The notes: generated by a model from the letters alone, not told the origin. Counted from the stretch's first letter, positions 415 through 32,524 are shown. The stretch: DNA of 64,000 nt from Corallococcus sp. Z5C101001 (GCF_007352635.1 NZ_VKLU01000005.1:635940-699939); one strand, 5' to 3'. Program-made: numbers and translations.

Positions 415-464
415 GCGGCGCACCTTATGCAAAACTGGGCCGGAACAAGGGAGCGAAGCGACGG

Positions 465-8615: not shown

Positions 8616-8625
8616 CCGTGCTTCC

Positions 8626-9909: not shown

Positions 9910-10134
9910 GTACCCCACCCCTTCGCTGTCGGTCGCTCGTCCCGTCACACGCGTGCCCCTGGCCCTCGTGGATGTCCGGCTGTCGGCTGTTCGCGAACAG
10001 CTGGCGAACAGCAGACGGCTGGCGGGCAAGGGGCAAAGCAGCGGACGTGCCAGAGGCCGGGGGCGCTGGATGCCTGGATCTTCAGGGGGTTGCGTGAGGC
10101 TCCCGGACCGACGGGCCGGGCAAGGCTGAAAAAG

Positions 10135-15941: not shown

Positions 15942-18900
15942 ATGCGTCTCAGGGAAAAACTGTTGACCAGCCTGCTGCTGGTGCCCGTCGCGGGTACCAG
16001 CGCGTGGGCCAAGGAGCGGTCGAATTTCGACGCGTTCCTGGAGCAGCGGGATTCTCGCTCGCTGGCCGTGGATACCAACACGGCCGTGTCCCGTGGGCTT
16101 CGCATCGAGCACACCGAGCAGCGGCTCGGCGTGCCCACGTTCGCGTGGGCGACCCAGGACGGAGCGCTGTCCAAGTCCGTCATCCGCGCTGGCATGACGG
16201 CGGAGAACGCGGCGCGCGCGCACCTGCAGACCGTGGCGGACAGCTACCGGCTGTCGCGTGACGACGTCTCGGGCGCTTCGCTGCGCGCGATGCACAACAC
16301 CGGCAAGGGCGCCATCGTCGCGACCTTCAACCAGACGGTGAACGGCATCCCGGTCTTCCGCAACGAGCTGAAGGTCATCATGGGCCAGGACCTGCGCCTG
16401 GTGGCCGTCAGCGGCTACCTGGCCCCGTCCGAGCTCACGCTCACCGCCCGCACGAAGTCGCGCGGCGCGTTCCAGCTGAGCGCGGCGGACGCGGTCTCCG
16501 GTGCGTTCAAGGACCTGACGGGCTCCGGCACGCAGGCCACCTCGTTCATCAACGCGGGCACGCAGGGCGACTACACCTACTTCGAGCTGTCCCCCGGCGC
16601 GAAGTCCACGCTGGCGCAGGACCTGGCCGTCCCGGCCCGTGCCCGGCAGGTGTTCTTCACGATGTCCGGCGCGCTCGAGCCCGCCTGGTACGTGGAGGTC
16701 AACGCCGGCCCGAAGGCGGCGCGCTCCAGCCAGTACTTCTCCTACGTGGTGTCGGCGGCCACCGGCGCGGTGCTCTTCCGCAACGACCTGACCGTGGACG
16801 CGGCGGGCACGCCCTTCACGTACAAGGTCTGGGCGGACACGACGTCTCCGTTCATCCCGGAGGACGGTCCCCAGGGCAACGACGCGACCCCGCACCCCAC
16901 GGGCACGCGCGACGGCTTCCAGATCCCGCTGAACCGCCCGGCGCACGACATCACCCTGGCGAACAGCCCCTACAGCCAGAATGACCCCTGGCTGCCGGCC
17001 AACGCCACGCAGACCACGGGCAACAACGTGGACGCGTACGCGGACCTGTCCGCGCCGGACGGCTTCCAACCGAACAGCGCCGACATCCGCGCGGAGACGA
17101 CCAGCGCCAACACGTTCGCGTACGTCTACGACACCACCAAGGCGCCGGGGTCCAGCCCCCAGCAGATCAAGGCCTCGGTGGTGAACCTGTTCTATGTGAA
17201 CAACTTCCTGCACGACTGGTTCTACGACTCCGGCTTCGACGAGGCCTCGGGCAACGCCCAGTCGTACAACTTCGGCCGCGGTGGCGCGGAGAGCGACCCC
17301 ATCCAGGCCCAGGCCCAGGACTACGGCGGCCGCAACAACGCGAACATGAGCACGCCGGCGGACGGTGCGTCGCCGCGCATGCAGATGTACGTGTTCGACG
17401 GTACGCCCGAGCTGTCCGTGACGGCGCCCGCCACCCTGGCCGGCGTCTACGAGGCCGCCTCCGCGAGCTACGGCAAGCAGGCGTACGACATGACGGGGGA
17501 CCTCAAGGCTGCTCCGACCACCAACCCGCTGGGCTGCGCCGCGTTCGACGCCGGCTACTTCACCGGGAAGGTTGCCCTCATCGACCGCGGTACTTGCAAC
17601 TTCGTGGTCAAGTCGCTCTTCGCCCAGCAGGCGGGCGCGCTCGCCACGGTCATCGTCAACAACGCGCCAGGCAGCCCCGGCGCCATGGCTGGCAACGGCA
17701 CGGATGACGCCAAGGTCACCACTCCCTCGCTGATGATCACCCAGGCGGCGGGCGCCGCGTGGAAGGCCGGGCTGGCCACTGGCCCGGTGAGTGTGAAGTT
17801 CCTGCGCGAGCCGAACCAGGACCGCGACGGCACACTCGACAACGGCATCATCGCCCACGAGTGGGGGCACTACATCAGCAACCGCCTCATCGGTAACGCC
17901 GCGGGCCTCAGCAACAACCAGGGCCGCTCGATGGGCGAGGGCTGGGGTGACTTCCACGCGATGCTGATGCAGGTGCGCGCGTCGGACGTGACCAAGCCCG
18001 GCAACAACAATTGGCAGGGCGTCTACAGTACCGCGGGATACGTCTCCAGCGGCGGCAAGAACCAGGGCTACTACTACGGCATCCGTCGCCTGCCCTACTC
18101 GACGGACATGAGCAAGAACGGTTACACGTTCAAGCACATCTCCAACTACACCGCCCTGCCCGCCGACTCGAACTCCACGCGAGTGGACATCAACAGCGAG
18201 GTCCACAACAGCGGTGAAGTGTGGGCCACGATGCTTTGGGAGTGCTACGCGAGCCTGCTGAACGCGCACCCGTTCCCGGAGGCGCAGGACCGCATGAAGC
18301 GCTATCTCGTCGCCGCCTACAAGGCGACGCCGAACGCGCCCACCTACACGGAAGCGCGCGACGCGGTGCTGGCGGTGGCGCAGGCCAACGACCCGGCCGA
18401 CTACAGCCGCTTCGTGGCGGCGTTCGCCAAGCGCGGCATGGGCTTTGGCGCCAAGTCGCCGGACCGCAGCGTCTTCGACCACCTGGGCGTAGTGGAGAGC
18501 TTCTCCTCCGGCGGCAACCTGGAAGTCGTCAGCGTCCAGTTGGATGACAGCGTGAGCGGCTGCGACCAGGATGGAATCCTGGACGTGGGCGAGCAGGGCC
18601 GGCTCAAGCTCGTCGTGCGCAACACGGGCGGTGGCGGACTGAGCGCCTTCACCGGCACGGTCAGCACCTCCAGCTCCACTGCCACCCTGGCGTTCCCGGC
18701 GGGCAACACGGTGTCCGTCCCCGCCCTGTCGCGCGGTGCGCAGACCACCCTCTCCATCCCGGTGAGCCTCACCGCGGTGTCGGGTGCGAACGCTCGCGCA
18801 GGGCTGAAGGTCGTCTTCGACTCGACGGAGATTCCGACGGCGGCGAAGACGGTGACGTACGACCCCCGCGTCAACTACGACAACGTGCCGGCCGTCAGCA

Positions 18901-21113
18901 ACACGGAGAGCTTCGAGTCCGGCCTGTCTGCCTGGACGGTGTCGCAGAACCTCTCGTCCTCCGGTGACTTCTCGCTGTCTGGCACGCCGGCCAACCAGTA
19001 CGCGCACGGCCAGTCTCCATCCTCCGCGGCGGAGATCACCCTCACCAGCCCCTGGATGACGGTGGACGAAGCGCAGGACTTCACCATCAGCTACAAGTAC
19101 CGTCACTCCTTCGAGTACGACTTCAGCTACAACTACGCCTACGACGGCGCGGTGCTGGAGTTCACGGTCGACGGCATCGACTGGATCGACCCCTGGGATC
19201 TGTACCCGGTGGTGGACGCGGATCCGGGCTATGTGGCCGCCATCCAGCTGGGCGGCCAGAACCCCATCGAGGGCCGCGCCGCGATGGCGCGGGTGAGCGC
19301 GGGCTTCCCGGCCTTCACGGCGGCGAGCATCGACTTCGGTGACTTCTTCCCCAGCCTGGGCCTGAAGAACGTGCGCTTCCGCTTCCGCGTCGCCTCCGAC
19401 GTGGCCGTGGGTGGCTACGGTCTGGACGTGGATGACGTGAAGTTCACCGGCGCCACGGCCGTGTTCCCGTCGCAGGCCGACCAGGGCGCCACGCCCGGCG
19501 CTTGCAACGTGCGCCCGGTGGCCAACCCGGGCCCGGCGCAGGCCGTGGCCGAGGGTCGCATCGTCGGCGGCGTGTTCACGCGAACGACGGTCACCCTGAA
19601 CGGCTCCGGCAGCTTCGATCCGGACGCCGCCCCGGGCTCCGTGCTCACCTACAACTGGACGCAGGTGGGCGGCTACACGCCGGTGACGCTGACCGGCGCG
19701 AACACCGCGACGCCGAGCTTCGTGGCGAACGTGGACTATGACGACGTGCTCACCTTCCAGCTCGTCGTCACCGACGCGGCTGGCAAGACGAGCTTCCCGA
19801 AGACGGTGGACGTCAAGATCACCAACGTGAACCAGGTGCCGGTCGCCGTTGCCTCCGCGCAGGCCTCGGTGGACGAGCGTGACCCCACGCCGGTCGTCCT
19901 GGATGCCTCGGGCTCGTCGGATCCGGACCCGCTCGACAACGGCACCCTGACGTACTCCTGGGCGCAGACGGGCGGCACGCCCACCGTGACGCTGACCAAC
20001 GCCACCAAGGCGAAGGCCTCGTTCCTGGCGCCGGAAGTGACGGCGGACACGCAGCTGACCTTCACGGTCACCGTGACGGACAGCAGCGCCGCGAAGGCGA
20101 CGAAGTCCGTCGCCGTGACGGTGAAGAACGTGGACCGCGCTCCGGTGGCCAACGCCGGCGCGGACATCGCCGCGGACGCTCGCTCCACGGTGACGCTGTC
20201 GGGCTCCGGCTCGGATCCGGATGGCACGGCGGTCACGTACTTCTGGGAGCAGAAGGTCGGCCCCTCGGTGACCCTGACGGGTGCGGACACGGCGACGGCG
20301 AGCTTCACGGCGCCGGACGTCAGCGCCCCCACCGAGCTGACCTTCCAGCTCACCGTGTCCTCCGGTGGCCTGTCCACCACGGACCTGGTCAACGTCACGG
20401 TCCGCAAGGCGAACCGCCACCCGGTGGGCCAGGCTCCGGCCGCCATCGACGCGGACGAGGGCAGCAACGTGGAGCTGGACGCGTCCGGCATCACGGATCC
20501 GGATGGTGACGCCCTCACCTACGCCTGGATCCAGGTCGGTGGCCCCGCTGTGACGGCCACGGGCACGGATTCGGCCACGCTGAAGTTCACCGCGCCGGAG
20601 GTCCAGGTCGACACGGCCGTGGCCTTCAGCCTGACGGTGAAGGACTCGGACGGCGCCGTCGCCGGCCCGTTCGTCTACACGGTGAACGTGAAGCAGGTGA
20701 ACCAGGCGCCGGTCGCCAAGGCCCGCATCATCTCGGCCGTGCGTCCCGGTGAGCTGGTGAAGCTCGACGCCTCCACGTCCACGGATCCGGACCACGAGGC
20801 GCTGACCTACGCCTGGGCCCAGACGGGTGGCCCGTCCGTGACGCTCTCTGGCGCCGACACCGCCGAGGCCAGCTTCACGGCGAAGAAGTCCACGAACGCG
20901 GAGAACTACACCTTCACCGTGACGGTGAAGGACGCGGCCGGGGCCTCCAGCACCGCCGAGGTGAAGGTCGCCGTGGCGAAGTACGAGGAGCCGGTGACGG
21001 AGCAGCCGAAGGATGATGGCGGCTGCTCCTCCACGGGCGGCTCCGTGGGCGGCATGGCGCCGCTGATGGCGCTGTTCGCGGCCATGGCGCTCTCGCGCCG
21101 TCGCAAGGCGTAG
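15942..21113 (+). CDS. Secreted multidomain M36 (fungalysin-like) zinc metalloprotease: signal peptide, FTP/propeptide, PA domain, M36 catalytic domain (HEWGH), five tandem PKD/Ig-like domains and a C-terminal MYXO-CTERM sorting signal.
   Basis: A signal peptide (MRLREKLLTSLLLVPVAGTSAWA) is followed by a PA domain (FTGKVALIDRGTCNFVVKSLFAQQAGALATVIVNN). The zinc site is HEWGHYISNRL...EGWGDFHA. Five ~95-aa repeats of the pattern (NxAPVAxA...LDASGSSDPD...LTYxWxQxGGPxVTLxGAxTAxASFTAP) come next. The tail ...GGCSSTGGSVGGMAPLMALFAAMALSRRRKA matches the MYXO-CTERM pattern of Cys, a Gly-rich stretch, a TM helix and basic residues. Confidence 0.8.
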   Translation: MRLREKLLTSLLLVPVAGTSAWAKERSNFDAFLEQRDSRSLAVDTNTAVSRGLRIEHTEQRLGVPTFAWATQDGALSKSVIRAGMTAENAARAHLQTVADSYRLSRDDVSGASLRAMHNTGKGAIVATFNQTVNGIPVFRNELKVIMGQDLRLVAVSGYLAPSELTLTARTKSRGAFQLSAADAVSGAFKDLTGSGTQATSFINAGTQGDYTYFELSPGAKSTLAQDLAVPARARQVFFTMSGALEPAWYVEVNAGPKAARSSQYFSYVVSAATGAVLFRNDLTVDAAGTPFTYKVWADTTSPFIPEDGPQGNDATPHPTGTRDGFQIPLNRPAHDITLANSPYSQNDPWLPANATQTTGNNVDAYADLSAPDGFQPNSADIRAETTSANTFAYVYDTTKAPGSSPQQIKASVVNLFYVNNFLHDWFYDSGFDEASGNAQSYNFGRGGAESDPIQAQAQDYGGRNNANMSTPADGASPRMQMYVFDGTPELSVTAPATLAGVYEAASASYGKQAYDMTGDLKAAPTTNPLGCAAFDAGYFTGKVALIDRGTCNFVVKSLFAQQAGALATVIVNNAPGSPGAMAGNGTDDAKVTTPSLMITQAAGAAWKAGLATGPVSVKFLREPNQDRDGTLDNGIIAHEWGHYISNRLIGNAAGLSNNQGRSMGEGWGDFHAMLMQVRASDVTKPGNNNWQGVYSTAGYVSSGGKNQGYYYGIRRLPYSTDMSKNGYTFKHISNYTALPADSNSTRVDINSEVHNSGEVWATMLWECYASLLNAHPFPEAQDRMKRYLVAAYKATPNAPTYTEARDAVLAVAQANDPADYSRFVAAFAKRGMGFGAKSPDRSVFDHLGVVESFSSGGNLEVVSVQLDDSVSGCDQDGILDVGEQGRLKLVVRNTGGGGLSAFTGTVSTSSSTATLAFPAGNTVSVPALSRGAQTTLSIPVSLTAVSGANARAGLKVVFDSTEIPTAAKTVTYDPRVNYDNVPAVSNTESFESGLSAWTVSQNLSSSGDFSLSGTPANQYAHGQSPSSAAEITLTSPWMTVDEAQDFTISYKYRHSFEYDFSYNYAYDGAVLEFTVDGIDWIDPWDLYPVVDADPGYVAAIQLGGQNPIEGRAAMARVSAGFPAFTAASIDFGDFFPSLGLKNVRFRFRVASDVAVGGYGLDVDDVKFTGATAVFPSQADQGATPGACNVRPVANPGPAQAVAEGRIVGGVFTRTTVTLNGSGSFDPDAAPGSVLTYNWTQVGGYTPVTLTGANTATPSFVANVDYDDVLTFQLVVTDAAGKTSFPKTVDVKITNVNQVPVAVASAQASVDERDPTPVVLDASGSSDPDPLDNGTLTYSWAQTGGTPTVTLTNATKAKASFLAPEVTADTQLTFTVTVTDSSAAKATKSVAVTVKNVDRAPVANAGADIAADARSTVTLSGSGSDPDGTAVTYFWEQKVGPSVTLTGADTATASFTAPDVSAPTELTFQLTVSSGGLSTTDLVNVTVRKANRHPVGQAPAAIDADEGSNVELDASGITDPDGDALTYAWIQVGGPAVTATGTDSATLKFTAPEVQVDTAVAFSLTVKDSDGAVAGPFVYTVNVKQVNQAPVAKARIISAVRPGELVKLDASTSTDPDHEALTYAWAQTGGPSVTLSGADTAEASFTAKKSTNAENYTFTVTVKDAAGASSTAEVKVAVAKYEEPVTEQPKDDGGCSSTGGSVGGMAPLMALFAAMALSRRRKA
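19520..20990. repeat. Five tandem in-frame PKD/Ig-like domain repeats (about 290 nt each) inside the M36 protease gene.
   Basis: Repeated protein blocks end in ...VTVKNV / VNVKQV / VDVKITNV and each carries SGSxDPD and LTYxW motifs. The similarity extends to the nucleotide level. Confidence 0.6.
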
Positions 21114-21232: not shown

Positions 21233-21628
21233 ATGGCACGCACGTTCCAGGTGGGAGACACCTTCACCCACGTCCGCCAGTGCGACCGGCTGAGGCCGGT
21301 GTATTACGCGGGCGCTTCCGGGGACTACAACCCCATCCACATCGACCCGGAGGTGGGCCGACTCGCCGGCTTCAACGGCGTCATCCTCCAGGGACTCTGC
21401 ACCCTGGGCTGGGCCGTGGAGGCCGTGGCCGTCTTCGTGGGCGACCCAGGCCTCGTGCGCCGCGTGAAGGTGCGCTTCTCCCGGCCCGTGCTGCCCGAGG
21501 ACACCGTCACCTTCCAAGGCCGCGTCACCGCCGTCGCGGACGGACGGATGAGCACCGAAGTCACCGCCACCAACCAGCGCGGCGAGCCCGTCCTCCGGGG
21601 CGCCGTCGTGGAAACCTCGCTCGGATAG
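21233..21628 (+). CDS. MaoC-like (R)-specific enoyl-CoA hydratase/dehydratase, the catalytic hotdog subunit.
   Basis: The hydratase-2 motif GASGDYNPIHIDPEVGRLAGF is present in a single hotdog fold of 131 aa. Confidence 0.8.
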   Translation: MARTFQVGDTFTHVRQCDRLRPVYYAGASGDYNPIHIDPEVGRLAGFNGVILQGLCTLGWAVEAVAVFVGDPGLVRRVKVRFSRPVLPEDTVTFQGRVTAVADGRMSTEVTATNQRGEPVLRGAVVETSLG

Positions 21629-21630: not shown

Positions 21631-22113
21631 ATGGCCCTGGACCCGAAATTCGTCGGCCGCGCCTACGGCCCCTTCACCTACGAGATTGGCCGGGAGAAGC
21701 TGCGCGAGTTCTCCCTCCTCCTCGGAGGCTCCGTGCCCTCCGCGGGCACCTTCGGCGAGCCCCCCGCCCATGTCAGCCCCCTGCTCTATTCGCGGGAAGC
21801 CGCGCAGGCGGGCCCCTACGGCGACATCATCGCCTTCCCCAGCTTCGCGGTGGTCTTCGCCATCCGCCCCTTCAGCGCCGCCATCGCGGACCCGGAGCTG
21901 GGCGTGGACCGCGTGCGGCTGGTGCACGGCGAACAGGAGCTGGAGTTCCTGGGCGTGATGCGCCCGGGCGACGTGCTCACCACCACGGGCCACATCACCG
22001 AGCTGTATCGCAAGGCCGGGATGGACTTCCTCGTCGTCACCACGGAGACCCGCAACGCCAGCGGCGAGCCCGTGGTGCGCGGCGTGTGGACCGCTGTCAT
22101 CCGCTCCGCGTGA
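21631..22113 (+). CDS. MaoC-associated hotdog-fold protein (HadA/HadC-like non-catalytic partner, N-terminal hotdog type).
   Basis: The gene starts 2 nt after the MaoC stop. Hotdog-like sequence (VRLVHGEQELEFLGVMRPGDVLTTTGHITEL) lacks the DxNPxH motif. This resembles the paired-subunit dehydratase arrangement. Confidence 0.6.
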   Translation: MALDPKFVGRAYGPFTYEIGREKLREFSLLLGGSVPSAGTFGEPPAHVSPLLYSREAAQAGPYGDIIAFPSFAVVFAIRPFSAAIADPELGVDRVRLVHGEQELEFLGVMRPGDVLTTTGHITELYRKAGMDFLVVTTETRNASGEPVVRGVWTAVIRSA

Positions 22114-22126: not shown

Positions 22127-22918
22127 CTACTCGCCGGGGGCGATGATGCCCTCGTCGAGCAGCTGCGCGAGGATGCGCGCGGTGTCCAGGCGCGACATGC
22201 CCGACAGCGCGAAGAGGTCGTCGAAGCTCACCGCGCCGTCGATTTGAGCGAGCACGAAGCCCGCGCGGTGGTCCAGGTTGAGCCAGATGATGTCGTCCGG
22301 CTGCAACCGCACGCGCGGCATGCGGTTCAGGTCGCCCAGGCGGGCCTCCAGCATGGACACCAGGATGCGCTCGCTGCGGTCGCGCAGCGCCTCCACGCGG
22401 GGATTCTCCGGCGCCAGGGACTGCGCCCGGCGCAGCAGCTCCACCGCGCCGGAGTGGTCGTCCAGCGACAGCAGGTCCTCCGCTCCCCGGAGCAGGCTCT
22501 CCACCTCCGAGCCCTCGGGCAGGACGCCCACGGGCACGAAGGTCTCCGGGAGGCCGAACTCCTGCGTGCGGTGGGCCTCCGCGATGAGGTCCAACGCGTC
22601 GCCTCGCGTCCCCGTCCCCTCCGGCAGGCTCACCGAGTCGCGCAGCGGCTCCACGGGGCTGGGCGACGACGGGCCCACCCATGCCCCCCAGTCCGCTTCC
22701 TGGTCGGGGGCCGCGAGGTTCCACCCGGACTCCCCGGGCCCCGGGTTCGCGCCCGCGGTCTCCGGAGCGCCGTCCCGCCCGAGGAGCCGGCGCGCGCGCG
22801 CGTTGTCCGGGTCCAGCTCCAGGGCCCGGACGAACAGCTTCTCCGCGCCGGCCATGTCGCCACTCAGTCGCAACAGCAACCCGGCTTCGACCAGCGCCTT
22901 GGCCCGGAGGGCGTTCAT
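22127..22918 (-). CDS. TPR-repeat protein, third gene of the Hsp70 operon.
   Basis: An N-terminal TPR-like helix pair (AKALVEAGLLLRLSGDMAGAEKLFVRALELDPDNARARRLL) is followed by an acidic linker and a C-terminal conserved region. Confidence 0.5.
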   Translation of the reverse strand: MNALRAKALVEAGLLLRLSGDMAGAEKLFVRALELDPDNARARRLLGRDGAPETAGANPGPGESGWNLAAPDQEADWGAWVGPSSPSPVEPLRDSVSLPEGTGTRGDALDLIAEAHRTQEFGLPETFVPVGVLPEGSEVESLLRGAEDLLSLDDHSGAVELLRRAQSLAPENPRVEALRDRSERILVSMLEARLGDLNRMPRVRLQPDDIIWLNLDHRAGFVLAQIDGAVSFDDLFALSGMSRLDTARILAQLLDEGIIAPGE

Positions 22919-22921
22919 GGG

Positions 22922-24769
22922 CTACCTCCCCGGTGTTCCGCGCGGTCCGGCCGAGCGCAGCAGCGGCAGGCTCTGGGCGAGCGCCTCGCAGGCCCGGGTG
23001 AGCGCCCCCACGTCCTCGGCGGCGCGCGCCTGGCGCGCGTGGGCCAGGGCGGCCTCCGCTTGGGCGACGACGTCGGGGGACAGCCCTCCGGCCCCGGGCA
23101 GGAGCCGGACTCGGGAGAGCGCGTCCACCAGGTCACGGGCCAGGATGTCCAGCTCCACGCGCTTCGACTTCAGCTCTTCCGTGTTGCGCGCCGCCACCAG
23201 CCAGTCGCGCTGCTCGTCCATGATGCGGCGCAGCTCGTCCTCGGTGAGGCCGCTGGAGGCGGTGACGGTGATGGACTGGCGCAGGCCCGTGTCGCGGTCC
23301 CGCGCGGAGACGGAGACGATGCCCTCCGCGTTGATGTCGAACGTCACCTCGATCTCCACCTGTCCGCGCGGCGCCTCGCGCAGGCCGGTGAGGAGGAACT
23401 CCCCCAGGAGCTCGTTGTGGTGCGCCAGCTCGTGCTCGCCCTGGAGCACCATGATCTTCACCGTGCGCTGGAAGTCCTTGGAGGTGGCGAACACCTCCGT
23501 GGCGGACGTGGGCACGGTGGTGTTGCGCGGAATCAGGCGGCGCACGTAGCCGCCCGCGATCGCCACGCCCATGCTCTGGGGGGTGACGTCCAGCAGCAGC
23601 AGCTCTCCCTCCTGGGCCACCAGGGCGTGCGCCTGAATGGCGGCGCCCAGGGCCACCACCTCCTCGGCGTGCACGCCCTTGCAGGGCTCGCGGCGGAAGT
23701 ACTGGCGCACCTGATCCACGATGCGAGGCATGCGCGACATGCCCCCCACGAGGATGACCTCCTTCAGCTCCGAGGGGCGCACCTTCGCCTCGCCCAGCAC
23801 CTCCGACGTGATGCCTACCAGGCGCTCGCCCAGGTCCGCCGTCAGGTCCTCCAGCTTCTCTCGGGTGAGCGTGCTCTGCAGGTGCAGCGCGGCGCCTCCG
23901 CCCGGCGGGGTGCAGATGAAGGGCAGGTGCAGCTGCGTCTCCTTCACCGACGACAGCTCCACCTTCGCCTTCTCCGCGGCGTCCTTCAGCCGCTGGAGCG
24001 CCATCCGGTCCTTGCGCAGGTCGATGCCGTGTTCCTTGGCGAAGCCGAAGACCATCCACTCGATGATGCGGTGGTCCCAGTCCTCGCCGCCCAGGAAGGT
24101 GTCCCCGCCGGTGGCCACCACGTCGAAGATGCCGTTGTTGATCTCCAGCACCGACACGTCGAAGGTGCCGCCGCCCAGGTCCAACACGGCGATCTTCCCG
24201 TTCACCGTGCGCCCGAAGCCGTACGCCAGCGCCGCCGCGGTGGGCTCGTTGATGATGCGCAGGACCTCCAGCCCCGCGATGCGGCCCGCGTCCTTGGTGG
24301 CCTGCCGCTGCCCGTCGTTGAAGTAGGCGGGCACGGTGATGACGGCCTGGGTGACGGGCCGGCCGAAGTGCGCCTCCGCGTCCGCCTTCAGCTCCGCGAG
24401 GATCATCGCGCTGACCTCCGGGACGGCCAGGTCGCGGCCCGCCAGCCGGATGCGCACGTCGTCGTGCTGGCCGCACACCACCTGGTACGTCAGCGCGCGC
24501 AGCGCGTCCTGCACCGGGTGCGAGGAGAACTTGCGGCCGATGAGCCGCTTCGCCGCGGACACCGTGTCCTGCGGGTTGGTGATGGCCTGGCGCTTGGCGA
24601 TGCCGCCCACCAGGCGCTTGCCGTTCTTCGACACCGCCACCACGGACGGAGTGAGGGGGGCGCCGGTGCGGTTCTTGATGATGAGGGGCTGACCGTCCTG
24701 CACGGTGGCGACGAGGCTGTTCGTCGTCCCCAGGTCGATGCCAATCAGCGGTTCGGGCTCAGCAGCCAT
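22922..24769 (-). CDS. Hsp70-family chaperone, HscC-like atypical DnaK paralogue.
   Basis: The product [15 protein letters not shown]...LTPSVVAV...[14 protein letters not shown]... carries Hsp70 ATPase-domain phosphate and connect motifs. The substrate-binding region is shortened, as in HscC. Confidence 0.85.
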
Positions 24770-24784
24770 GGGGACGCATGCACC

Positions 24785-26116
24785 TCACGAGAACGTCCAA
24801 CGCAGCTTCTTGAGGGCCGCGCGGGCCTCGGCGTTGTCCGGATCCAGGCGCACGGCCTCCTCGAAGTGGTGCTTGGCCTGCTTCTTCTGCCCCGCGACCA
24901 GGAGCACCTGCGCGAGCAACAGCTGGTAGTCCGCCCGGCCGGGCTTCAGCTCCACCGCGCGCTGCGCGAGCGCCCGCACCTCCTGCGGATCCTGCGCCAG
25001 CTCCCGCCCCACGCGCGCGGCCTGATAGGAGGCCTCCGGGTGGTCCCCGTTGAGCGACACGGCCAGCTTGTAGGCCGCCTGCGCGCCGCTGAAGTCCCCT
25101 CGCATCTCCAGCTCCTGCCCCCGCTCCACCTCGGTCTGGGCGCGGTGCAGGTCGTGCTTGCGGCGCGCGTCCACCAGGAGCGAGGCGACCTCGCGGTTCT
25201 TCGGATCCAGGCCCAGGACGTGGTTGAAGTCCTGGTAGGCCCGCTCGAAGTCCCCGCGCGCGGTGGCCGCCTTGCCCCGGGCGATGAGCTCCGTGAGCTT
25301 GTGGCTGCGCGCCATGTACGGGTGGCGCGCGAAGCGGGCCTGCCGCTCGGCTCGGCGGGCCTCGGACTCCGGGTCCTCCGGGGCGGGCGGAGGGGGCTCG
25401 GCGGGAGGCGGCGGGGTGACGGCCGCGAAGGACTCCGCCGTGGGACGCCGGCCTGGAACCGGGGGCGCGGGAGGGGCCGGGCGCGCGGCCTGCGGCGGAG
25501 GGGCGGCCTGCGGCGGGGCCGCGGCGGGCGGGCGCGGCGGCTCCTGGCGACTGAGGGCGTTGTGGGCGTCCGTGAGGCGCTTGAAGATGCGCTCCAGCCG
25601 CGCGCGGAAGCTGCCCAGGTTCTTGCCGAAGTAACGGTCCGGGTGGAAGCGGCGGGACGCGTTGTAATAGGCCTGCTTCACCTCCTGCGCGGTGGCGCCC
25701 CGGGGCACGCCCAGCACGGCGTGGTGGTCCATCCCGTCCAGCGAGCGCTCCAGGTCGATGATCTCGCGCTTCTGCTCGGGCTCCAGGTCCACTTCCTCGG
25801 CCATCGCGGCATCCAGCGAGGGCGCGGCGGGCGTGGCGCGTTGCACCACGCGGGCCGGGACGATGGCGCCCTTGGCGCGCAGGGAGAGCAGCACGGCGAT
25901 GGTGCGGGCCTCGCCCAACGACGAGCGGGACAGCACCGCGTCGATGCGTTCGACGCGGCCCACCAGCGCCAGCACCGAGCCCTCCTCCGGACTGAGGTGG
26001 AGGCGGGCCGGATCCAGGTGGGGCACGGTCGCGATGTGGTCGGTCCTGCCCCCCAGGCCGACGATGGGGTTGGGCGCGCTCAAGGTCACACGTTCCGGAG
26101 GCTGGCGAATCCCCAA
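24785..26116 (-). CDS. J-domain protein with C-terminal TPR repeats, the co-chaperone partner of the adjacent Hsp70.
   Basis: The J domain DHHAVLGVPRGATAQEVKQAYYNASRRFHPDRY has the HPD motif. A Pro-rich linker is followed by at least four TPR repeats ending in ...AEARAALKKLRWTFS. Confidence 0.75.
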   Translation of the reverse strand: MGIRQPPERVTLSAPNPIVGLGGRTDHIATVPHLDPARLHLSPEEGSVLALVGRVERIDAVLSRSSLGEARTIAVLLSLRAKGAIVPARVVQRATPAAPSLDAAMAEEVDLEPEQKREIIDLERSLDGMDHHAVLGVPRGATAQEVKQAYYNASRRFHPDRYFGKNLGSFRARLERIFKRLTDAHNALSRQEPPRPPAAAPPQAAPPPQAARPAPPAPPVPGRRPTAESFAAVTPPPPAEPPPPAPEDPESEARRAERQARFARHPYMARSHKLTELIARGKAATARGDFERAYQDFNHVLGLDPKNREVASLLVDARRKHDLHRAQTEVERGQELEMRGDFSGAQAAYKLAVSLNGDHPEASYQAARVGRELAQDPQEVRALAQRAVELKPGRADYQLLLAQVLLVAGQKKQAKHHFEEAVRLDPDNAEARAALKKLRWTFS

Positions 26117-26176
26117 GTGTAGGTGTCCGGGAAGCAGGGCGTCAATCTTCCCGGGTCCATCATGCCCCTCCCCCTT

Positions 26177-27460
26177 CTACAGAGAGGCCAATACACGCTG
26201 GAGGATGCCCAGCGCTTCGTCCAGTTCGTTCTGGGAGATGATGAGCGCCGGGGCGAAGCGCAGCGTGACTTCGCCCGCCGAGTTCACCAGCAGTCCGGCA
26301 TCGCGCAGCTTCGCGATGACGGGGGCCACCTCCCGGTCCAGCTCGATGCCCAGGAGCAGGCCGCGGCCTCGCACGGCCTGGATGCGGCCCTGCGGCAGGG
26401 CGGCCTGGAGCGCCCGGGCGCCGGCGAGGAAGTGCTCTCCCTTGGCCTGCACCTCCGCCAGCAGGCCGGGCTGCCGCAGCAGCCGCAGCACCACGTTGGC
26501 GGCGGCGGCGGAGACCAGGTTGCCGCCGAAGGTGGTGCCGTGGGTGCCGGGCGTCAGGCTCCTGGCCAGCTCCTCGCGGCACAGCATGGCGCCCATGGGC
26601 AGGCCGTTGCCCAGGGCCTTGGCGACGCTGATGGCGTCCGGCTGGATGCCGTCGTGCATGAAGCCGAAGGGCAGGCCGGTGCGCCCCATGCCCGTCTGCA
26701 CCTCGTCCACGAGCAGCAGCAGGCCCTGCTCGTCGCACAGCGCGCGCAGGCCCTGGAGGAAGCCGGGGGGCGCCATGCGCACGCCGCCTTCGCCCTGGAT
26801 GGGCTCCACCAGGATGGCGGCGGTGGCGGGGCCCACGGCGCGGCGCACCGCCTCCAGGTCGCCGTAGGGCACGTGCTTGAAGCCCTGGGGCAGCGGCTCG
26901 AAGCCGGCGTGGTACTTCGGCTGGCCGGTGGCGGTGACGGTGGCCAGCGTGCGGCCGTGGAAGCTCTTCTCGAAGGAGAGGACCTCGTAGCGCTCCGGCG
27001 TACCCCGGTCCTTCATCACCTTGCGCGCGAGCTTGAGGAGCGCCTCGTTGGCCTCCGCGCCGGAGTTGCAGAAGAACGCGCGCGGCAGGCCCACCCAGTC
27101 GGTGAGCTGCGCGGCCAGGTCGATCTGCGGCTGCGAGTAGAAGACGTTGGACACGTGCCAGAGCGTGTCCAGCTGCGCCTTCGCCGCCGCGACCACCTCC
27201 GGGTGGCAGTGGCCCAGGGCGCACACCGCGATGCCGCCGATGCAGTCCAGGTACGCCTTGCCATCCGCGTCCCACACCCGGGTGCCCTGCCCACGCACCA
27301 GGGCGATGGGCTGCTGCTTGTAGTTCTGCAGCAGGTGCTGCTTGGCCTTCTGGATGAGGGTGTCGTTGCCAGGAGGGGTGGACGCGGGAGACGGCGACGG
27401 TTGCGGCAAGGTGGTGTACCTCACGATTCTTGGGTGACGCGGTGGGACAACGCGGCGCAC
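26177..27460 (-). CDS. argD: Acetylornithine aminotransferase (class-III PLP aminotransferase).
   Basis: GGIAVCALGHCHP, LLLVDEVQTGMGRTG and AKALGNGLPMGA (the PLP lysine region) are present. The GTG start at 27460 gives a ~35-aa N-terminal extension relative to typical ArgD, so the true start may be an internal TTG or GTG. Confidence 0.8.
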   Translation of the reverse strand: MRRVVPPRHPRIVRYTTLPQPSPSPASTPPGNDTLIQKAKQHLLQNYKQQPIALVRGQGTRVWDADGKAYLDCIGGIAVCALGHCHPEVVAAAKAQLDTLWHVSNVFYSQPQIDLAAQLTDWVGLPRAFFCNSGAEANEALLKLARKVMKDRGTPERYEVLSFEKSFHGRTLATVTATGQPKYHAGFEPLPQGFKHVPYGDLEAVRRAVGPATAAILVEPIQGEGGVRMAPPGFLQGLRALCDEQGLLLLVDEVQTGMGRTGLPFGFMHDGIQPDAISVAKALGNGLPMGAMLCREELARSLTPGTHGTTFGGNLVSAAAANVVLRLLRQPGLLAEVQAKGEHFLAGARALQAALPQGRIQAVRGRGLLLGIELDREVAPVIAKLRDAGLLVNSAGEVTLRFAPALIISQNELDEALGILQRVLASL

Positions 27461-27469: not shown

Positions 27470-28867
27470 CTAGAGGATGTAGCGCGACAAGTCCTCGTCC
27501 TGGACGATGGCGGCCAGGCGGTCGCGCACATAGGCGCCGTCCACCTGGAAGTCGCGCGGGCCCAGTTCGCTGGCGGTGAAGGACACCTCGTCCAGGAGCC
27601 GCTCCAGCACGGTGTGCAGCCGGCGAGCGCCAATGTTCTGCGTGCGCTCGTTGGCCTGCTGGGCGATGCGGGCGATCTCCGCCACGGCGTCTTCCGTGAA
27701 GGACAGGCGCACCCCTTCCGTGGCGAGCAGCGCGGTGTACTGGCGCATGAGCGAGTTCTTCGGCTCGCGCAGGATGCGCACCAGGTCCTCACCGGAGAGC
27801 GCCTCCAGCTCCACGCGGATGGGGAAGCGGCCTTGGAGCTCCGGGATGAGGTCCGCCGGCTTGGAGACGTGGAAGGCGCCCGCGGCGATGAAGAGCATGT
27901 GGTCCGTCTTCACCTGGCCGTACTTGGTGTTGACGGCGGAGCCCTCCACGATGGGCAGGATGTCGCGCTGCACGCCCTCGCGCGAGACGTCCGGCCCCCC
28001 GCCGCCCTTGCCACCCTCGCGGCTGGCGATCTTGTCGATTTCGTCGATGAAGACGATGCCGCTGGACTCGGCGCGCAGCACGGCCTCGCGCTGGACGCGG
28101 TCCGGATCCACCAGCTTCTGGGCCTCCTCCGCGCGCAGCACCTGAAGCGCCTCGGGCACGCGCAGGCGGCGCTTCCGGGTGTTCTTCATGCCCGGCATGT
28201 TCTTGAACAGGTCCTGGAGGTTGACGCCGATCTCCTCCATGCCCTGGCCACTGAAGTTGCGCATGAACGTGGGCGAGCTCTCGCTCGTCTCCACCTCCAC
28301 GGTCTGATCATCCAGCGTGCCGGCGCGCAGCTGGGCGCGCAGCTTCTCCCGCTCGCTGTCTCCCAGCGGCGAGGGCGTAGGCGCCGGCGGCGGGGAGAAG
28401 CCAAAGGGCGGCGACGAGGGGGTGCGCGACTGGCCGCCGTTCTTGAGCAGGTCCATCAGCCGGTCCTCGGCCAGCTCCTCCGCGCGCGGTTTGACCTTCT
28501 CCGTCTCCTCTTCGCGCACGAGCGCGATGGCGGCCTCCACGAGGTCGCGGATCATCGACTCGACGTCGCGGCCCACGTAGCCCACTTCGGTGAACTTGCT
28601 GGCCTCCACCTTGACGAAAGGGGCCTGGGACAGCTTCGCCAGGCGGCGGGCGATCTCCGTCTTCCCCACGCCAGTGGGGCCGATCATGATGATGTTCTTC
28701 GGATAGATTTCATCGCGAAGGTCATCGGACACCTGCTGGCGGCGCCACCGGTTGCGCAGGGCGATGGCCACTGCGCGCTTGGCGTCGTTCTGGCCGACGA
28801 TGTAACGGTCCAGCTCGCTGACGACCTCGCGAGGCGTGAAGGCGGACAACTTGCGCGATTCGGCCAC
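27470..28867 (-). CDS. hslU: ATP-dependent protease ATPase subunit HslU.
   Basis: The N-terminus [34 protein letters not shown] and the Walker [16 protein letters not shown] are present. An I-domain Pro-rich insertion ([20 protein letters not shown]) is also visible. Confidence 0.9.
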
Positions 28868-28879: not shown

Positions 28880-29407
28880 TCAGAGCTCTTCGTAGGTGAC
28901 GTTGGAATTGGTGTAGACGCAGATGTCCGCGGCGATGGCCATGGACTGCGAACAGATGTCGCGGGCCGACATCTGGGTGTTCGCCAGCAGGGCGCGCGCG
29001 GCGGACAGGGCATAGTGGCCCCCGCTGCCCACGGCGGCGATGCCGTGGTCGGGTTCGATGACGTCGCCCGCGCCGGAGAGGATGAACGTCTTCTCCCGGT
29101 CCGCGACGATGAGCAGCGCTTCCAGGCGGCGGAGGAAGCGGTCGGTGCGCCAGTCCTTGCCAAGCTCCACGCAGGCGCGCGCCAGGTTCTTCTGGTGCTC
29201 CTTGAGCTTGGCTTCGAAGCGCTCGAAGAGCGTGAAGGCGTCCGCGGTGCTGCCAGCGAAGCCGGCGAGCACCTGCCCCTCGCCGATGCGGCGCACCTTG
29301 CGCGCCGTGTTCTTCATGATGGTCTTGTCGAGACTGACCTGACCGTCGCCCGCGATGACGACCTTCCCTTCGCGGCGGACGCAGAGGATCGTGGTGCCAT
29401 GGAACAT
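28880..29407 (-). CDS. hslV: ATP-dependent protease subunit HslV.
   Basis: [25 protein letters not shown]... has Thr2 as the catalytic nucleophile after Met removal. The GSGG motif is present. Confidence 0.9.
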
Positions 29408-29488: not shown

Positions 29489-29878
29489 TCAGGTCGCGGT
29501 CGCCTTCATCCATCGTCCCACCAGCTTCACGAGGGCGGCCTTCTTCGCCTTCGCGGTCTTCGCGTCAGGCAGCGTGACGACGCCCCGGTCCGGAGCCAGC
29601 CACTCCACGAGGGCCGAGTCGTCCTCGAAGGCGAAGCCCTTCGAGTCCTTCACCTTCGCGCCCCGGTGCAGGATGACCTGGAAGATGCCCTTGGGGGCCA
29701 ACCGGAACGTCACCCGGTCGTCACCTGAGTGGACGAAGCTGGGGGCCTTCCACTTGATGCGCTCGGTGATGGCCGCGTCGGAGGCCAGGATGGCGGCGCG
29801 CACGGCTTCGATCTCCGCCTTCAGCGGGTGTTCGAGTGCCGCCATGTACTCGTCGACATCGTTGCTCGTGGTCGCCAT
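29489..29878 (-). CDS. DUF1801 (YdhG-like) small cytosolic protein.
   Basis: A 129-aa ORF with clear codon bias. The pattern (…RIKWKAPSFVHSGDDRVTFRLAPKG…) is typical of the DUF1801/YdhG family. Confidence 0.55.
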   Translation of the reverse strand: MATTSNDVDEYMAALEHPLKAEIEAVRAAILASDAAITERIKWKAPSFVHSGDDRVTFRLAPKGIFQVILHRGAKVKDSKGFAFEDDSALVEWLAPDRGVVTLPDAKTAKAKKAALVKLVGRWMKATAT

Positions 29879-30123
29879 CCCCGGTCCTTTACGATTGGGC
29901 CTCCGCGGAGCTTACCAGTCCGACTTTCGCCCCCTATGCCGATCTTCCAGGGACGAGAACATCACTCACGGACAGGCAAGTCGCGTGCGCGGACTCTTTA
30001 CAGGACCTCCTCAGGAAGACAGTGCAGGACTACGGTGGCGCGCTTCATCACAGGTCAGACGTTGCGCAGTCCCCGTGTCGCAAGCAGACCTCGACCCTCG
30101 GTGCGCAGGTCAGCCTCTCCTGC

Positions 30124-30387
30124 TCAAGTGGTTCGATGCCGTCGCCATGGGCCACCTGCTGAATCACGTTCGGCATCCCAGTCCGATGGGAGATCGCGGA
30201 CCTCATTCAGCGTCGGATCATTCTCGAAGAGGTGATTGATCCCAACGACCCGGGGGTGCTCATCCTCAGCGTGGCTACCTCCACAGAGGAACTGCCAGTC
30301 ACCATCGCCCCGAGACACCAGCAGCACATGGTGAGTCTTTTGAAACACATGCGAACAGACGTAGGCCGGAGTCTCGGACTCGCTCAT
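30124..30387 (-). CDS. Small DUF2185-like protein, a family found in polymorphic-toxin immunity loci.
   Basis: The pattern YVCSHVF...HHVLLVSRGDGDWQFLCGGSHAEDEHPRVVGINHLFENDPTLNEV resembles the DUF2185 core (hydrophobic-R-acidic-(S/D)GW-F-xG-E-acidic...DP). I chose the start at MSESE, directly after the upstream gene stop. Confidence 0.4.
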   Translation of the reverse strand: MSESETPAYVCSHVFQKTHHVLLVSRGDGDWQFLCGGSHAEDEHPRVVGINHLFENDPTLNEVRDLPSDWDAERDSAGGPWRRHRTT

Positions 30388-30860
30388 GACTTCCCCTCCC
30401 CAGGCGACCTGGCCCATTCCTGCCTCAAGATCGGCTCTTCACAGTCAACCAACCCGGCAGTCATGGCTCCGGCAACGTACCGCCGCACCTCCCCAAGAGA
30501 GACACCCCCTGGGACATTCACCGCCACCACCCTATGTGCAGCGTCAAACTCAGTCGAGCAACCCAACCGCTTCAACTCCCCCACAACCCCCACAAGACTC
30601 ATGCGATCATAAACAATCAGCCGCAGCAATGAGTTCCCAGACTCACGCCTCGTCGCCCGATACCACAAGCGCCCGTCCTCCTCCTCTACCTCGATCGAAT
30701 CCCCGAGCGTCGCACCTCTAAAAAAGAATGGGATATTATCGAGCACGAACAGCCCGCCCCCAACAGGAGTGCACCACAGACTCTCCGTTCCAACAGGAGG
30801 ATATCCGTCCTCATCCTGTTCAAGATGGAAAAACACCTTTCGACGTCCACTCATGACCAT
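30384..30860 (-). CDS. DUF4265-like protein, a putative immunity-type protein.
   Basis: FHLEQDEDGYPPVGTESLWCTPVGGGLFVLDNIPFFFRGATLGDSIEV...RESGNSLLRL matches my recollection of the DUF4265 signature (EDGYPP...E.lW...ldNiPFf..g.s.gD.v). The region is low-GC. Confidence 0.4.
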   Translation of the reverse strand: MVMSGRRKVFFHLEQDEDGYPPVGTESLWCTPVGGGLFVLDNIPFFFRGATLGDSIEVEEEDGRLWYRATRRESGNSLLRLIVYDRMSLVGVVGELKRLGCSTEFDAAHRVVAVNVPGGVSLGEVRRYVAGAMTAGLVDCEEPILRQEWARSPGEGKS

Positions 30861-30990
30861 TGATAATTGTCATCCCCTACCTGATTACAATCCCCTCACA
30901 AGCCTTGCCGTGGAAACTCCACTGCGATTCTTCGCGAGCTGGAGAGGCGCAAGCCACCCACGGGCCTCAAACACATCACCAAGCGAAGAA

Positions 30991-31566
30991 TCATGACTCG
31001 AATCGATGAAGCACAAATGCCACTTCGTTCCCGGCTTCTCTGACGATATGGGTCAGTATTCGCGAGGTTCCCGGGGGAATCCGAAGCTCCAGTCCCGGCG
31101 CAATTTCTGCACGCAGAGCACTGTCCACGATGACATATGACTCATCACGGATCGTCATCACCAGCCGCTCCACGACGAAATGAGCATTTGCCTCAAAGGA
31201 AAGTGCAGCATCGACCAAACACTCTTCAGCAGGCGAACAGGTCCACCTGACGATTGCCGGACCGTCAATCCGCTCAACAACAGTTGTCCGCAGCGGCTCA
31301 TCACCCAAGACCAAAACCTCACCCCAGTCTCGTTTGAGCACGCCCGCGTAACCGTCGATGGCGCATGCATCGCGGTAATCATCACAAGCCGTCCCAGTCC
31401 AACGTGACCTCATCGAACCGGGCAGCATCACAAGCGGTCCCCCCATCGATTCGACCCAGCTACGCGGCTGCGACTTCATGTCCTGTCCTACCCAGCTTCC
31501 CAGCGAATGGTTGGCGACAAAGAGCGGCCGGGAAATCCAACGCAACTCCACGGACTGCTCTTGCAA
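30991..31566 (-). CDS. Imm21-like protein, resembling polymorphic-toxin immunity protein family 21.
   Basis: WVESMGGPLVMLPGS..RWTGTACDDYRDACAID.YAGVL..DWGEVLVLGDEPLRTTVVE....IVRW....LHRFES fits the Imm21 pattern as I recall it (GGPL, DY..AC, LVLgDEP, RW). The region is low-GC. Confidence 0.4.
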   Translation of the reverse strand: MQEQSVELRWISRPLFVANHSLGSWVGQDMKSQPRSWVESMGGPLVMLPGSMRSRWTGTACDDYRDACAIDGYAGVLKRDWGEVLVLGDEPLRTTVVERIDGPAIVRWTCSPAEECLVDAALSFEANAHFVVERLVMTIRDESYVIVDSALRAEIAPGLELRIPPGTSRILTHIVREAGNEVAFVLHRFES

Positions 31567-31621
31567 CTCAAATCCGGGACAGAGATCCGAGCATCGGAAA
31601 GACTCTCAAGCCCACACAACC

Positions 31622-32524
31622 TCACGCGCGCGGGTGCGCCGCGTCGTAGACCTCTTGCAACTGCTCGAAGGTCACGTGGGTGTACTTCTGCGTGGTGGAC
31701 AGGCTCGCGTGGCCCAGCAACTCCTGGATGCTGCGGATGTCCGCGCCGCCGCCCAGCAGGTGCGTGGCGAACGAGTGGCGCATCGCGTGCGGGCTCACCT
31801 TGCGCGCCAACGCCAGCCGCAGCACATACGCATCCAGGTGCCTCGCGATGCTCCGGGGCGTCAACCGGCCGCCTCGGAAGTTGAGGAACAGCGCGTCCGG
31901 GTCCTGCCCCGCATGCACCGTGGCCAACAGCTCGCCGCGCCTCGCGAGGTACGCCTCCAGTGACTGGATGGACTTCGCGTTGAGCGGCACCAGCCGCTCC
32001 TTGCTGCCCTTGCCCATCACCCGGACGATGCGACTGCTCCGGTCCACGCCCAACGTCGACAGACCGCACAGCTCGCTGATGCGCAGGCCGCCGCCGTACA
32101 GCATCTCCAGGATGGCCTTGTCACGCAGCCCCAACACCGTGTCCAGGTCCGGCATGTCGAGGATGGCGAACACCTCCTCCACCGGCAGCACCTTGGGCAG
32201 TGACTTCGGCAGCTTCGGACTCTTCACCAGCTTGGCGGGACTGGCCGGCAGCAGCTTCTGCCGCACGAGGTACTTGTAGAACGACTTGATACTCGCCAGC
32301 CGCCGCGCGCGGCTCGTGGGCGCATGGTCCACGCTCAGCGTGCCCAGGTAGCCACGGATGGCCGCGTGCGTGCCCGCGAGCAGCGACAACTTCATCCGAT
32401 CCACCAGGTAGCGCTCATAATCCACCAGGTCGATGAGGTAGTTGCGCACCGTGTGAGGGGACGCGCCCTTCTCGCCTTCCAGGTGGATCTTGAACTGCTC
32501 CAGCAGCGGGGACAGAGGGGACAT
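31622..32524 (-). CDS. xerC: Tyrosine site-specific recombinase XerC (housekeeping chromosome-dimer resolvase).
   Basis: An N-terminal SAM-like domain is followed by the catalytic R...HxxR...Y region (ARKVSPHAMRHSFATHLLGGGADIRSIQELLGHASLSTTQKYTHV). It is linked to hslVU, as codV is to clpQY in Bacillus. Confidence 0.85.
   Translation of the reverse strand: MSPLSPLLEQFKIHLEGEKGASPHTVRNYLIDLVDYERYLVDRMKLSLLAGTHAAIRGYLGTLSVDHAPTSRARRLASIKSFYKYLVRQKLLPASPAKLVKSPKLPKSLPKVLPVEEVFAILDMPDLDTVLGLRDKAILEMLYGGGLRISELCGLSTLGVDRSSRIVRVMGKGSKERLVPLNAKSIQSLEAYLARRGELLATVHAGQDPDALFLNFRGGRLTPRSIARHLDAYVLRLALARKVSPHAMRHSFATHLLGGGADIRSIQELLGHASLSTTQKYTHVTFEQLQEVYDAAHPRA

Follow-up and report, generated by a model that had tools for sequence, protein, structure and literature searches.

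A J-domain protein, a DnaK-type Hsp70 and a TPR/winged-helix-like protein encoded side by side in Corallococcus and related myxobacteria

Myxobacteria carry up to ~15 Hsp70 genes, and the roles of the non-canonical ones are largely obscure. We analyzed a 64,000-nt window (the whole stretch of DNA studied here; G+C ~70%) from Corallococcus sp. Z5C101001 that contains a three-gene unit of this kind, encoding a J-domain protein with tetratricopeptide repeats (TPRs; hereafter the J protein), an Hsp70 and a second TPR protein (hereafter T). The closest described system is the MXAN_3015-3017 locus of Myxococcus xanthus. Its Hsp70 gene, MXAN_3016, was reported by Pan et al. 2021 to be weakly transcribed (very low compared with MXAN_3192, which encodes the canonical MxDnaK1), not heat-induced and dispensable; its deletion left A-motility, S-motility/swarming, fruiting bodies and predation as in the wild type, with defects limited to lower sporulation and lower H2O2 survival (PMC8265645). 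MXAN_3016 did not rescue an E. coli ΔdnaK strain, was placed near but outside the typical DnaK branch of the published tree and was assigned in CDD to cl35085, not to PRK00290 (PMC8265645). MXAN_3015 is entered among the class C J-domain proteins of M. xanthus (Data Set S4 of PMC11019930; Pan et al. 2024, mSystems), a species in which no J-protein gene adjoins either canonical dnaK and only two GrpEs (MXAN_4331 and MXAN_6672) are encoded genome-wide (PMC11019930). Among the other M. xanthus paralogues, StkA (MXAN_3474) is a 540-aa protein whose gene is followed by those of the SCP2-type StkB and then StkC (PMC4319316), and SglK (MXAN_6671) has the GrpE homologue grpS upstream. A specialised DnaK that works with a cognate class C J protein and shares the general GrpE also has a precedent, in cyanobacteria (PMC9239167).

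Four published primers for the MXAN_3016 deletion (PMC8265645) map to the M. xanthus locus, the junction primers abutting the gene start and stop exactly, and the J-domain sequence of database protein P0202 is that of the MXAN_3015 J domain in Data Set S4 of PMC11019930. The M. xanthus DK1622 Hsp70 (ABF91200, 613 aa) shares a 90% cluster with the 82%-identical match of the Corallococcus protein, and identities to the M. xanthus orthologues are 82% for the Hsp70, ~62% for the J protein and ~53% for T. The M. xanthus genes run xerC, hslV, hslU, transaminase, J (453 aa), Hsp70, T (294 aa) and a convergent MaoC pair. Taken together, primer mapping, synteny and the J-domain match establish that the window carries the orthologues of MXAN_3015, MXAN_3016 and MXAN_3017. 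An identity with StkA or SglK, paralogues to which an original prediction made from this DNA had likened the Hsp70, was ruled out on the same grounds (primers and synteny), the neighbours being J/TPR and T genes with no GrpE or SCP2 gene among them. What is already known is thus a catalogued Hsp70 gene with a deletion phenotype and a J protein listed as class C with a DnaK1 interaction. The literature searched contained no description of the three genes as one unit and no mention of MXAN_3017; the strict three-gene unit, the T family, the winged-helix-like modules and the invariant arch changes reported below are not described there.

Conservation of the three genes as a unit

Gene calling with a filter on G+C at third codon positions (GC3), retaining one real open reading frame (ORF) per locus, yielded the J, Hsp70 and T genes as ORFs that run together on the minus strand and have GC3 values of the coding type (0.94-0.96; Table 1). 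The J stop codon is 15 nt from the Hsp70 ATG and the Hsp70 stop codon 3 nt from the T ATG, so that ORFs and GC3 bear out the three tightly spaced genes of the original prediction. Downstream, a convergent pair of dehydratase (MaoC) genes stops 13 nt from the T stop codon, and the unit therefore ends at T.

The original prediction had named co-conservation of the triad as a test of its proposal. GTDB species genomes were scanned with an alignment of T, and the best 80 of 185 genomes, all of them Myxococcaceae/Archangiaceae or metagenome-assembled genomes (MAGs) labelled Myxococcales, Myxococcota or 'Proteobacteria', together with four loci reached through Hsp70 homologues, provided 84 loci (L001-L084). 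J→Hsp70→T was found on one strand in 65/65 informative loci, defined as those with at least 3.4 kb upstream of T, and in each of the seven loci in which the full order could not be confirmed, a contig end truncates the sequence. J-Hsp70 gaps cluster at 9-18 nt (median ~11 nt) and Hsp70-T gaps at -4 to +3 nt (median 2-3 nt), with many adjacent pairs overlapping by 1 or 4 nt. The latter spacing indicates that the genes are translationally coupled. MXAN_3016-type Hsp70s of the sampled loci are thus always accompanied by one J/TPR co-chaperone and one TPR/linker/winged-helix protein, a concrete three-protein unit. The triad is a three-gene accessory Hsp70 module, seen only in Myxococcaceae/Archangiaceae genomes among those sampled, and it stands apart from the housekeeping DnaK set as had been proposed.

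Upstream on the same strand, hslU was found in 53/56 related loci, and a transaminase gene separates it from the J gene in 54/56; in two loci the J gene directly follows hslU at a distance of 19-40 nt. Three MAG loci (L032, L033 and L047) have transaminase-J-Hsp70-T with no hslV/hslU in the 3.7 kb upstream, and the hslVU link is therefore not universal. A scan for sigma-70-like promoters returned two sites in 11.3 kb against 0.6 expected, each a match to the consensus alone, and one of them lies ahead of the J gene (Table 1). A terminator scan gave no more sites than shuffled sequence, and PADLOC anti-phage defence models matched none of the three proteins at E <=0.01.

The three proteins and the genes around them

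The Hsp70 matches PF00012 (E 6.7e-199) over profile positions 2-589 of 599, that is, near end to end. BLAST placed it closest to E. coli DnaK (47% identity, 521 bits, residues 8-599 against DnaK 4-593), ahead of HscA (40%, 352 bits) and HscC (34%, 263 bits), and the closest solved structures are of full-length E. coli DnaK (538 bits). Its substrate-binding half is 42% identical to that of DnaK over 209 residues, whereas the HscC alignment spans only 94. In a multiple alignment the protein has none of the HscC deletions, its substrate-binding domain (SBD) and lid are full length, and the sole stretch missing relative to DnaK is the disordered C-terminal tail. The HscC-like N-terminus and the shortened, diverged SBD and lid of the original prediction are therefore not upheld. 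Among NCBIfam models, the score exceeded the cut-off of the DnaK model NF001413 (714.6 vs 648) and fell below those of the DnaK models TIGR02350 (692.3 vs 822.55), NF009946 and NF009947 (625 and 618 vs ~1000) and of the HscA model TIGR01991 (536 vs 708). Identity with HscA was rejected on this last score and on the absence of isc genes among the named neighbours. Corallococcus proteins 96% identical to the Hsp70 are named 'molecular chaperone DnaK'.

Residues were mapped across nine Hsp70 orthologues. The catalytic and allosteric residues K70, E171, T199, D201, P143, R151 and D393 and the VLLL linker are kept, as are the J-contact residues R167, N170 and T173, and K55, R56 and E267 are of the DnaK type, differing in HscA and HscC. 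The substrate arch is altered in 9/9 orthologues (M404A, A429S; also T437K/R). The C-termini end in ...GVxQRIGxR or ...GPRGTPGR, with no acidic EEVD-like motif in the alignment. These features, with a class assignment that rests on the E. coli paralogues, the NCBIfam cut-offs and the published tree (Pan et al. 2021), identify the Hsp70 by sequence as a DnaK-derived paralogue whose ATPase, interdomain allostery, J-docking site, SBD and lid are predicted to be intact. We read it as a working, J-responsive chaperone with an altered client cleft that, judging from established DnaK biochemistry, is probably GrpE-responsive. A tblastn search with the GrpE of E. coli detected no GrpE-like sequence in either the window or the 84 loci; one match at 54366-54557 (E 0.02) was dismissed as noise inside a DUF4912 protein. 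This part of the original prediction stands as an observation but says little about the class of the Hsp70, because M. xanthus DnaKs use two GrpEs that are encoded elsewhere.

A 432-aa database protein (P0153) is 100% identical to the J protein, and all homologues in the alignment begin 'MSxxxxIVGLG'. Since P0153 and all homologues begin there, the start codon is most likely the TTG at 26083 and not the one at 26116; residue numbers given here refer to the 443-aa ORF. The region ahead of the J domain, suspected in the original prediction to be a domain in its own right, is conserved in the alignment and folded in the AlphaFold model, with the order strand, helix, strand, helix, helix, strand. 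Its motif LLSLRAKGAIVPA is near-invariant and its isoelectric point (pI) is 8-11 across orthologues; Pfam gave weak matches to DprA_WH, TrmB and HTH_24, all below threshold. A conserved acidic helix (residues 113-126) connects it to the J domain, whose H158, P159 and D160 are invariant in 20 homologues. The mean predicted local distance difference test (pLDDT) score of the model is 85, and ten helices, modelled over residues 249-439 with pLDDT >94, form the TPR region (TPR_2, E 3e-15), which agrees with the four or more C-terminal TPRs proposed earlier. In Foldseek searches these helices superposed on the consensus TPR 1na0 with a root-mean-square deviation of 1.4 Å over 114 columns, and further matches were to OGT, MamA and Hop. 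The protein has no PF00684 Zn-finger, no PF01556 DnaJ C-terminal domain and no cysteine, again as proposed, and by its predicted domain content it is a class C (type III) J-domain protein. Its C-terminus carries KKLRW(P/T)F (residues 436-442, ~24791-24811, minus strand), near-invariant in 20 homologues of 43-87% identity; this looks, speculatively, like a basic-hydrophobic peptide of the kind that binds the Hsp70 cleft, and it might explain the SBDβ-dependent binding of MXAN_3015 to DnaK1 reported in PMC11019930.

The third protein has one clear TPR at its N-terminus, which confirms its assignment as a TPR protein. Its C-terminal module is predicted to combine a TPR-like hairpin and a long helix with a winged-helix-like domain, which has three helices and is acidic (pI ~4.4), and at least 30 of the last 60 residues are invariant. 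The winged-helix-like domain gave a sub-threshold match to HTH_Crp_2 in 9/12 members and a weak match to an IclR helix-turn-helix (HTH) model. A profile of the C-module retrieved 2644 clusters (50% identity) at E <=1e-3, of which 297 at E <=1e-30, and among the family members listed the module is nearly always C-terminal. Ten members of 650-926 aa, among the longest, were scanned with Pfam: eight had the N-terminal TPR only and two no domain, with no fused Hsp70, J or other domain, and their added length is therefore linker. The linker ranges from 80 to ~750 residues in the family, and the design of two ends joined by a linker is constant even at 650-926 aa. Foldseek with the full T model against the PDB returned insignificant TPR matches only (best E 0.04), as the extended disordered linker interferes with such a search; no informative PDB entry and no above-threshold Pfam family was retrieved for the C-module of T or the N-domain of J with profiles of these regions. 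The winged-helix-like domains of J and T are of opposite charge in every orthologue.

Table 1 Features of the three-gene unit and of the surrounding window.
Feature	Position	Strand	Remarks
J-domain/TPR co-chaperone gene	24785..26083	-	432 aa from TTG (most likely start); longest ORF to 26116, 443 aa; GC3 0.94; Pfam DnaJ + TPR
J: winged-helix-like N-domain	25853..26038	-	residues 27-88; basic; AlphaFold pLDDT >90
J: J domain	25541..25729	-	residues 130-192; PF00226 E 5.8e-11; HPD 158-160 at nt 25637-25645
J: Pro/Ala-rich disordered linker	25373..25540	-	residues 193-248; pLDDT <60; length varies among homologues
J: TPR superhelix	24800..25372	-	residues 249-439, ~5 hairpins; Pfam TPR_2, TPR_19, TPR_14
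DnaK-type Hsp70 paralogue gene	22922..24769	-	615 aa; nucleotide-binding domain (NBD) ~23600-24769; SBD + lid ~22925-23599
T protein gene (MXAN_3017 family)	22127..22918	-	263 aa; TPR / disordered linker / winged-helix-like
T: single N-terminal TPR	22781-22918	-	residues 1-46; Pfam TPR_2 E 3.8e-8
T: disordered linker	22520-22780	-	hypervariable
T: C-terminal module	22130-22519	-	~130 residues; near-invariant
Sigma-70-like promoter candidate	26116..26145	-	TTGACG, 18 nt, TACACT; consensus scan only; within the 93-nt argD-J gap
argD-family transaminase	26177-27460	-	NCBIfam argD 488.8 bits
hslU	27470-28867	-	NCBIfam hslU 637 bits
hslV	28880-29407	-	NCBIfam HslV 292 bits
DUF1801 gene	29489-29878	-	GC3 filter + Pfam/NCBIfam naming
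Two dehydratase (MaoC) genes, convergent	21233-21628, 21634-22113	+	Pfam/NCBIfam
Low-GC islet	30000-31600		GC 0.60 vs ~0.70
Islet: DUF4265 ORF	30384-30860	-	
Islet: Imm21 ORF	30991-31566	-	polymorphic-toxin immunity
xerC	31622-32524		
TerB/J protein gene	43-1299	+	TerB domain + C-terminal J domain
Smr-domain gene	1325-2026	+	follows the TerB/J gene
M36 protein gene	15942-21113	+	1723 aa, secreted type; M36 fungalysin peptidase + PA domain + many PKD/Big repeats
DUF6178 protein gene	10135-11796	-	
EngB-like GTPase gene	11836-12456	-	
Wzy_C gene	8626-10029	-	O-antigen-ligase-like
GT4 glycosyltransferase gene	7491-8636	-	

Several features lie outside the unit. Between the DUF1801 gene/hslV and xerC is an islet of lower G+C with two minus-strand ORFs; in M. 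xanthus this slot is occupied by a CitMHS transporter gene and in other relatives by an Smr gene (in more distant ones, an Smr gene stands between xerC and hslV), and as its contents differ among relatives it is a variable insertion slot beside a Xer recombinase gene. The window encodes a second J-domain protein, a TerB/J protein that the NCBIfam DjlA model matches in the J region only (71.8 bits vs a cut-off of 162). M. xanthus and the other relatives have no gene for the large M36 protein in the syntenic region; there, epimerase and coaE genes come immediately after the MaoC pair. The DUF6178, EngB-like, Wzy_C and GT4 genes form a minus-strand group that is also present in M. xanthus and in distant relatives, where it lies beyond the convergent MaoC genes. 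A further class C J protein of M. xanthus, MXAN_2745, which also binds only MxDnaK1, is encoded close to the DnaK-like, short-lidded MXAN_2747 (PMC11019930, PMC8265645), and adjacent J/Hsp70 pairs may recur across myxobacteria.

Proposed workings and competing explanations

We consider it probable that the window holds the Corallococcus copy of a conserved J/Hsp70/T accessory module that works as follows. The HPD-bearing J domain of the class C J protein would trigger ATP hydrolysis in the co-encoded Hsp70, and the client or site of action would be chosen by the TPR superhelix and the basic winged-helix-like N-domain of the J protein. T, with two conserved ends tethered by a flexible linker, would serve as an adaptor or scaffold that binds the J protein or the Hsp70, or would itself be the obligate client. 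For nucleotide exchange the module would draw on a general GrpE in trans, as cyanobacterial DnaK1/DnaJ3 does. Client specificity is likely to stem from the two partner proteins and the changed substrate arch. As judged from published work on its M. xanthus orthologue, the module contributes to sporulation and oxidative-stress recovery, not to motility.

Several observations weigh against this proposal. MXAN_3015 co-purified only with the housekeeping MxDnaK1, in agreement with split luciferase, and the binding was lost on an SBDβ swap (PMC11019930), and the J protein may therefore serve, or be a client of, DnaK1. MXAN_3016 is itself listed in the MxDnaK1 interactome and in the 'MxDnaK1-specific substrate' sheets (Data Set S3), and MXAN_3017 was not detected in that interactome (PMC11019930). 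The phenotypes of the MXAN_3016 deletion are mild and common to three other Hsp70 deletions (PMC8265645), and are therefore not specific to this gene. The predicted GrpE dependence derives from four residues only, and the triad may have its own promoter or be read through from hslVU-argD. The winged-helix-like domains of J and T, moreover, show weak homology to each other (hhalign E 3e-4 to 2e-3, probability 12-41%; BLAST E 0.007), a relationship that is suggestive, not established. The module is in any case tied into the main DnaK network and not insulated from it: as both MXAN_3015 and MXAN_3016 co-purify with MxDnaK1, the term 'dedicated' used in the original prediction was too strong and is not yet justified.

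A more networked arrangement is the alternative that survives best, possible if doubtful: the J protein would be mainly a co-chaperone or client of DnaK1, the neighbouring Hsp70 a weakly expressed back-up that shares it, and adjacency a matter of co-regulation. The exclusive, SBDβ-dependent binding of MXAN_3015 to MxDnaK1 in co-immunoprecipitation and split luciferase, the co-purification of MXAN_3016, its very low transcription relative to MXAN_3192 and a J-protein C-terminus that would be of a DnaK-binding type all point in this direction. However, if the co-encoded Hsp70 had no direct functional link to the J protein, it would be difficult to account for adjacency and coupling that persist in 65 species-level loci. 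The antibodies of that study were raised against DnaK1 and DnaK2 only (PMC11019930), so MXAN_3016 binding lay outside the assay, and cross-reaction of the anti-DnaK1 antibody with a related paralogue of Hsp70 is conceivable.

It is unlikely that the triad acts with a co-transcribed HslUV in proteolysis-coupled triage, handing captured damaged or regulatory proteins to HslU. The same-strand hslV-hslU genes upstream in nearly all related loci, the two loci in which J directly follows hslU and an oxidative-stress phenotype that fits protein quality control would suit such a role. However, the string xerC-hslV-hslU is ancient and widely conserved, and the linkage may therefore be inherited synteny. 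An unrelated argD-family gene is interposed between hslU and J almost throughout, the 93-nt argD-J gap contains a promoter-like site, and three loci have no hslU within reach. In a still bolder version, which we regard as a long shot, the J N-domain and the T C-module would form a heterodimer, a two-part TPR scaffold, held on a long flexible tether, that recruits the arch-modified Hsp70 to defined clients and passes these to HslUV. From their opposite charge the two winged-helix-like domains may, speculatively, bind each other; a scaffold of this kind, if real, would give bacteria an equivalent of the TPR co-chaperone triage of eukaryotes (Hop/CHIP logic), evolved in the absence of an EEVD tail.

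Equally built on the winged-helix-like domains, but improbable, is a nucleoid- or DNA-directed chaperone in which the basic domain of J would bind DNA (as CbpA does, differently) and target the Hsp70 to DNA-bound clients. The predicted topology, the basic pI in all orthologues and the weak DprA_WH, TrmB and HTH_24 matches of J, with the HTH_Crp_2 and IclR matches of T, are consistent with this possibility, but every HTH match is below its curated threshold, the strongly acidic T domain is incompatible with DNA binding, winged helices often serve protein-protein contacts and no DNA-related phenotype is known. Finally, a regulatory Hsp70 of the HscC/StkA/SglK type for fibrils, exopolysaccharide (EPS) and S-motility, the kind of system to which the original prediction likened the triad, has been largely refuted and is very improbable: SglK and StkA do serve EPS and S-motility in M. 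xanthus (PMC4319316, PMC8265645) and an Hsp70 with a non-canonical J protein loosely resembles the E. coli HscC-DjlB/DjlC locus with its Sel1/TPR-like genes, but the protein studied here is nearer to DnaK than to HscC and lacks the HscC deletions, its orthologue is MXAN_3016 and not MXAN_3474 or MXAN_6671, and the MXAN_3016 deletion is wild type for S- and A-motility, fruiting bodies and predation (PMC8265645). The locus is thereby set apart from the EPS/motility Hsp70s.

Comparison with known systems

The accessory module that we favor is a direct counterpart of the MXAN_3015-3017 locus, with identical order and flanks from xerC through the convergent MaoC pair, and differs from it in genus, in the lengths of the J and T linkers and in the presence of the islet and the DUF1801 gene in place of the CitMHS transporter gene. 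With E. coli HscC-DjlB/DjlC it shares an accessory Hsp70 near non-canonical J proteins and TPR-like (Sel1) proteins in the locus, but HscC is a 556-aa protein with deletions in the NBD (subdomain IIB) and lid and with a different linker and arch residues, and DjlB/DjlC have only the J domain in common with the J protein. Eukaryotic DNAJC7/TPR2 and DNAJC3/p58IPK also join a J domain to TPRs, and the TPR co-chaperones Hop and CHIP dock on the EEVD motif. The J protein resembles these eukaryotic TPR-J proteins in uniting a J domain and a TPR superhelix in one co-chaperone, and Foldseek superposed its TPR region on Hop from the Hsp90-Hsp70-Hop-GR complex (7kw7_E, the PDB match at rank 50). Its domain order is reversed, however, with the J domain ahead of the TPRs, and unlike the Hsp70s on which Hop and CHIP dock, the co-encoded Hsp70 lacks an EEVD-like C-terminus, which excludes docking in exactly the eukaryotic manner.

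With canonical DnaK (E. coli DnaK; MxDnaK1, MXAN_3192) the Hsp70 shares the NBD, the VLLL linker, SBDβ and the helical lid, the catalytic, allosteric and J-contact residues, the K55/R56/E267 set and a passing NF001413 score. It differs in falling below the TIGR02350 cut-off, in its missing C-terminal tail and in the M404A/A429S arch; its M. xanthus orthologue is not heat-induced, non-essential and unable to complement E. coli ΔdnaK (PMC8265645), and it is encoded beside a class C J protein, unlike a canonical DnaK with a class A DnaJ.

The cyanobacterial DnaK1/DnaJ3 system (McDonald et al. 2022, mBio, PMC9239167) offers a functional parallel, with a specialised DnaK paralogue, a cognate non-canonical J protein, clade-wide co-occurrence and reliance on the general GrpE. 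A specialised DnaK paralogue with its cognate class C J protein is thus a known kind, and the present example is useful for the field and not surprising. The two systems differ in that the cognate J gene of Nostoc is not adjacent and its client machinery, the type IV pilus (T4P) motor and hormogonium polysaccharide (HPS), is known (PMC9239167), whereas the myxobacterial unit has its J gene next to that of the Hsp70 and includes a third protein, of the TPR/winged-helix type, and the M. xanthus mutant retains normal motility.

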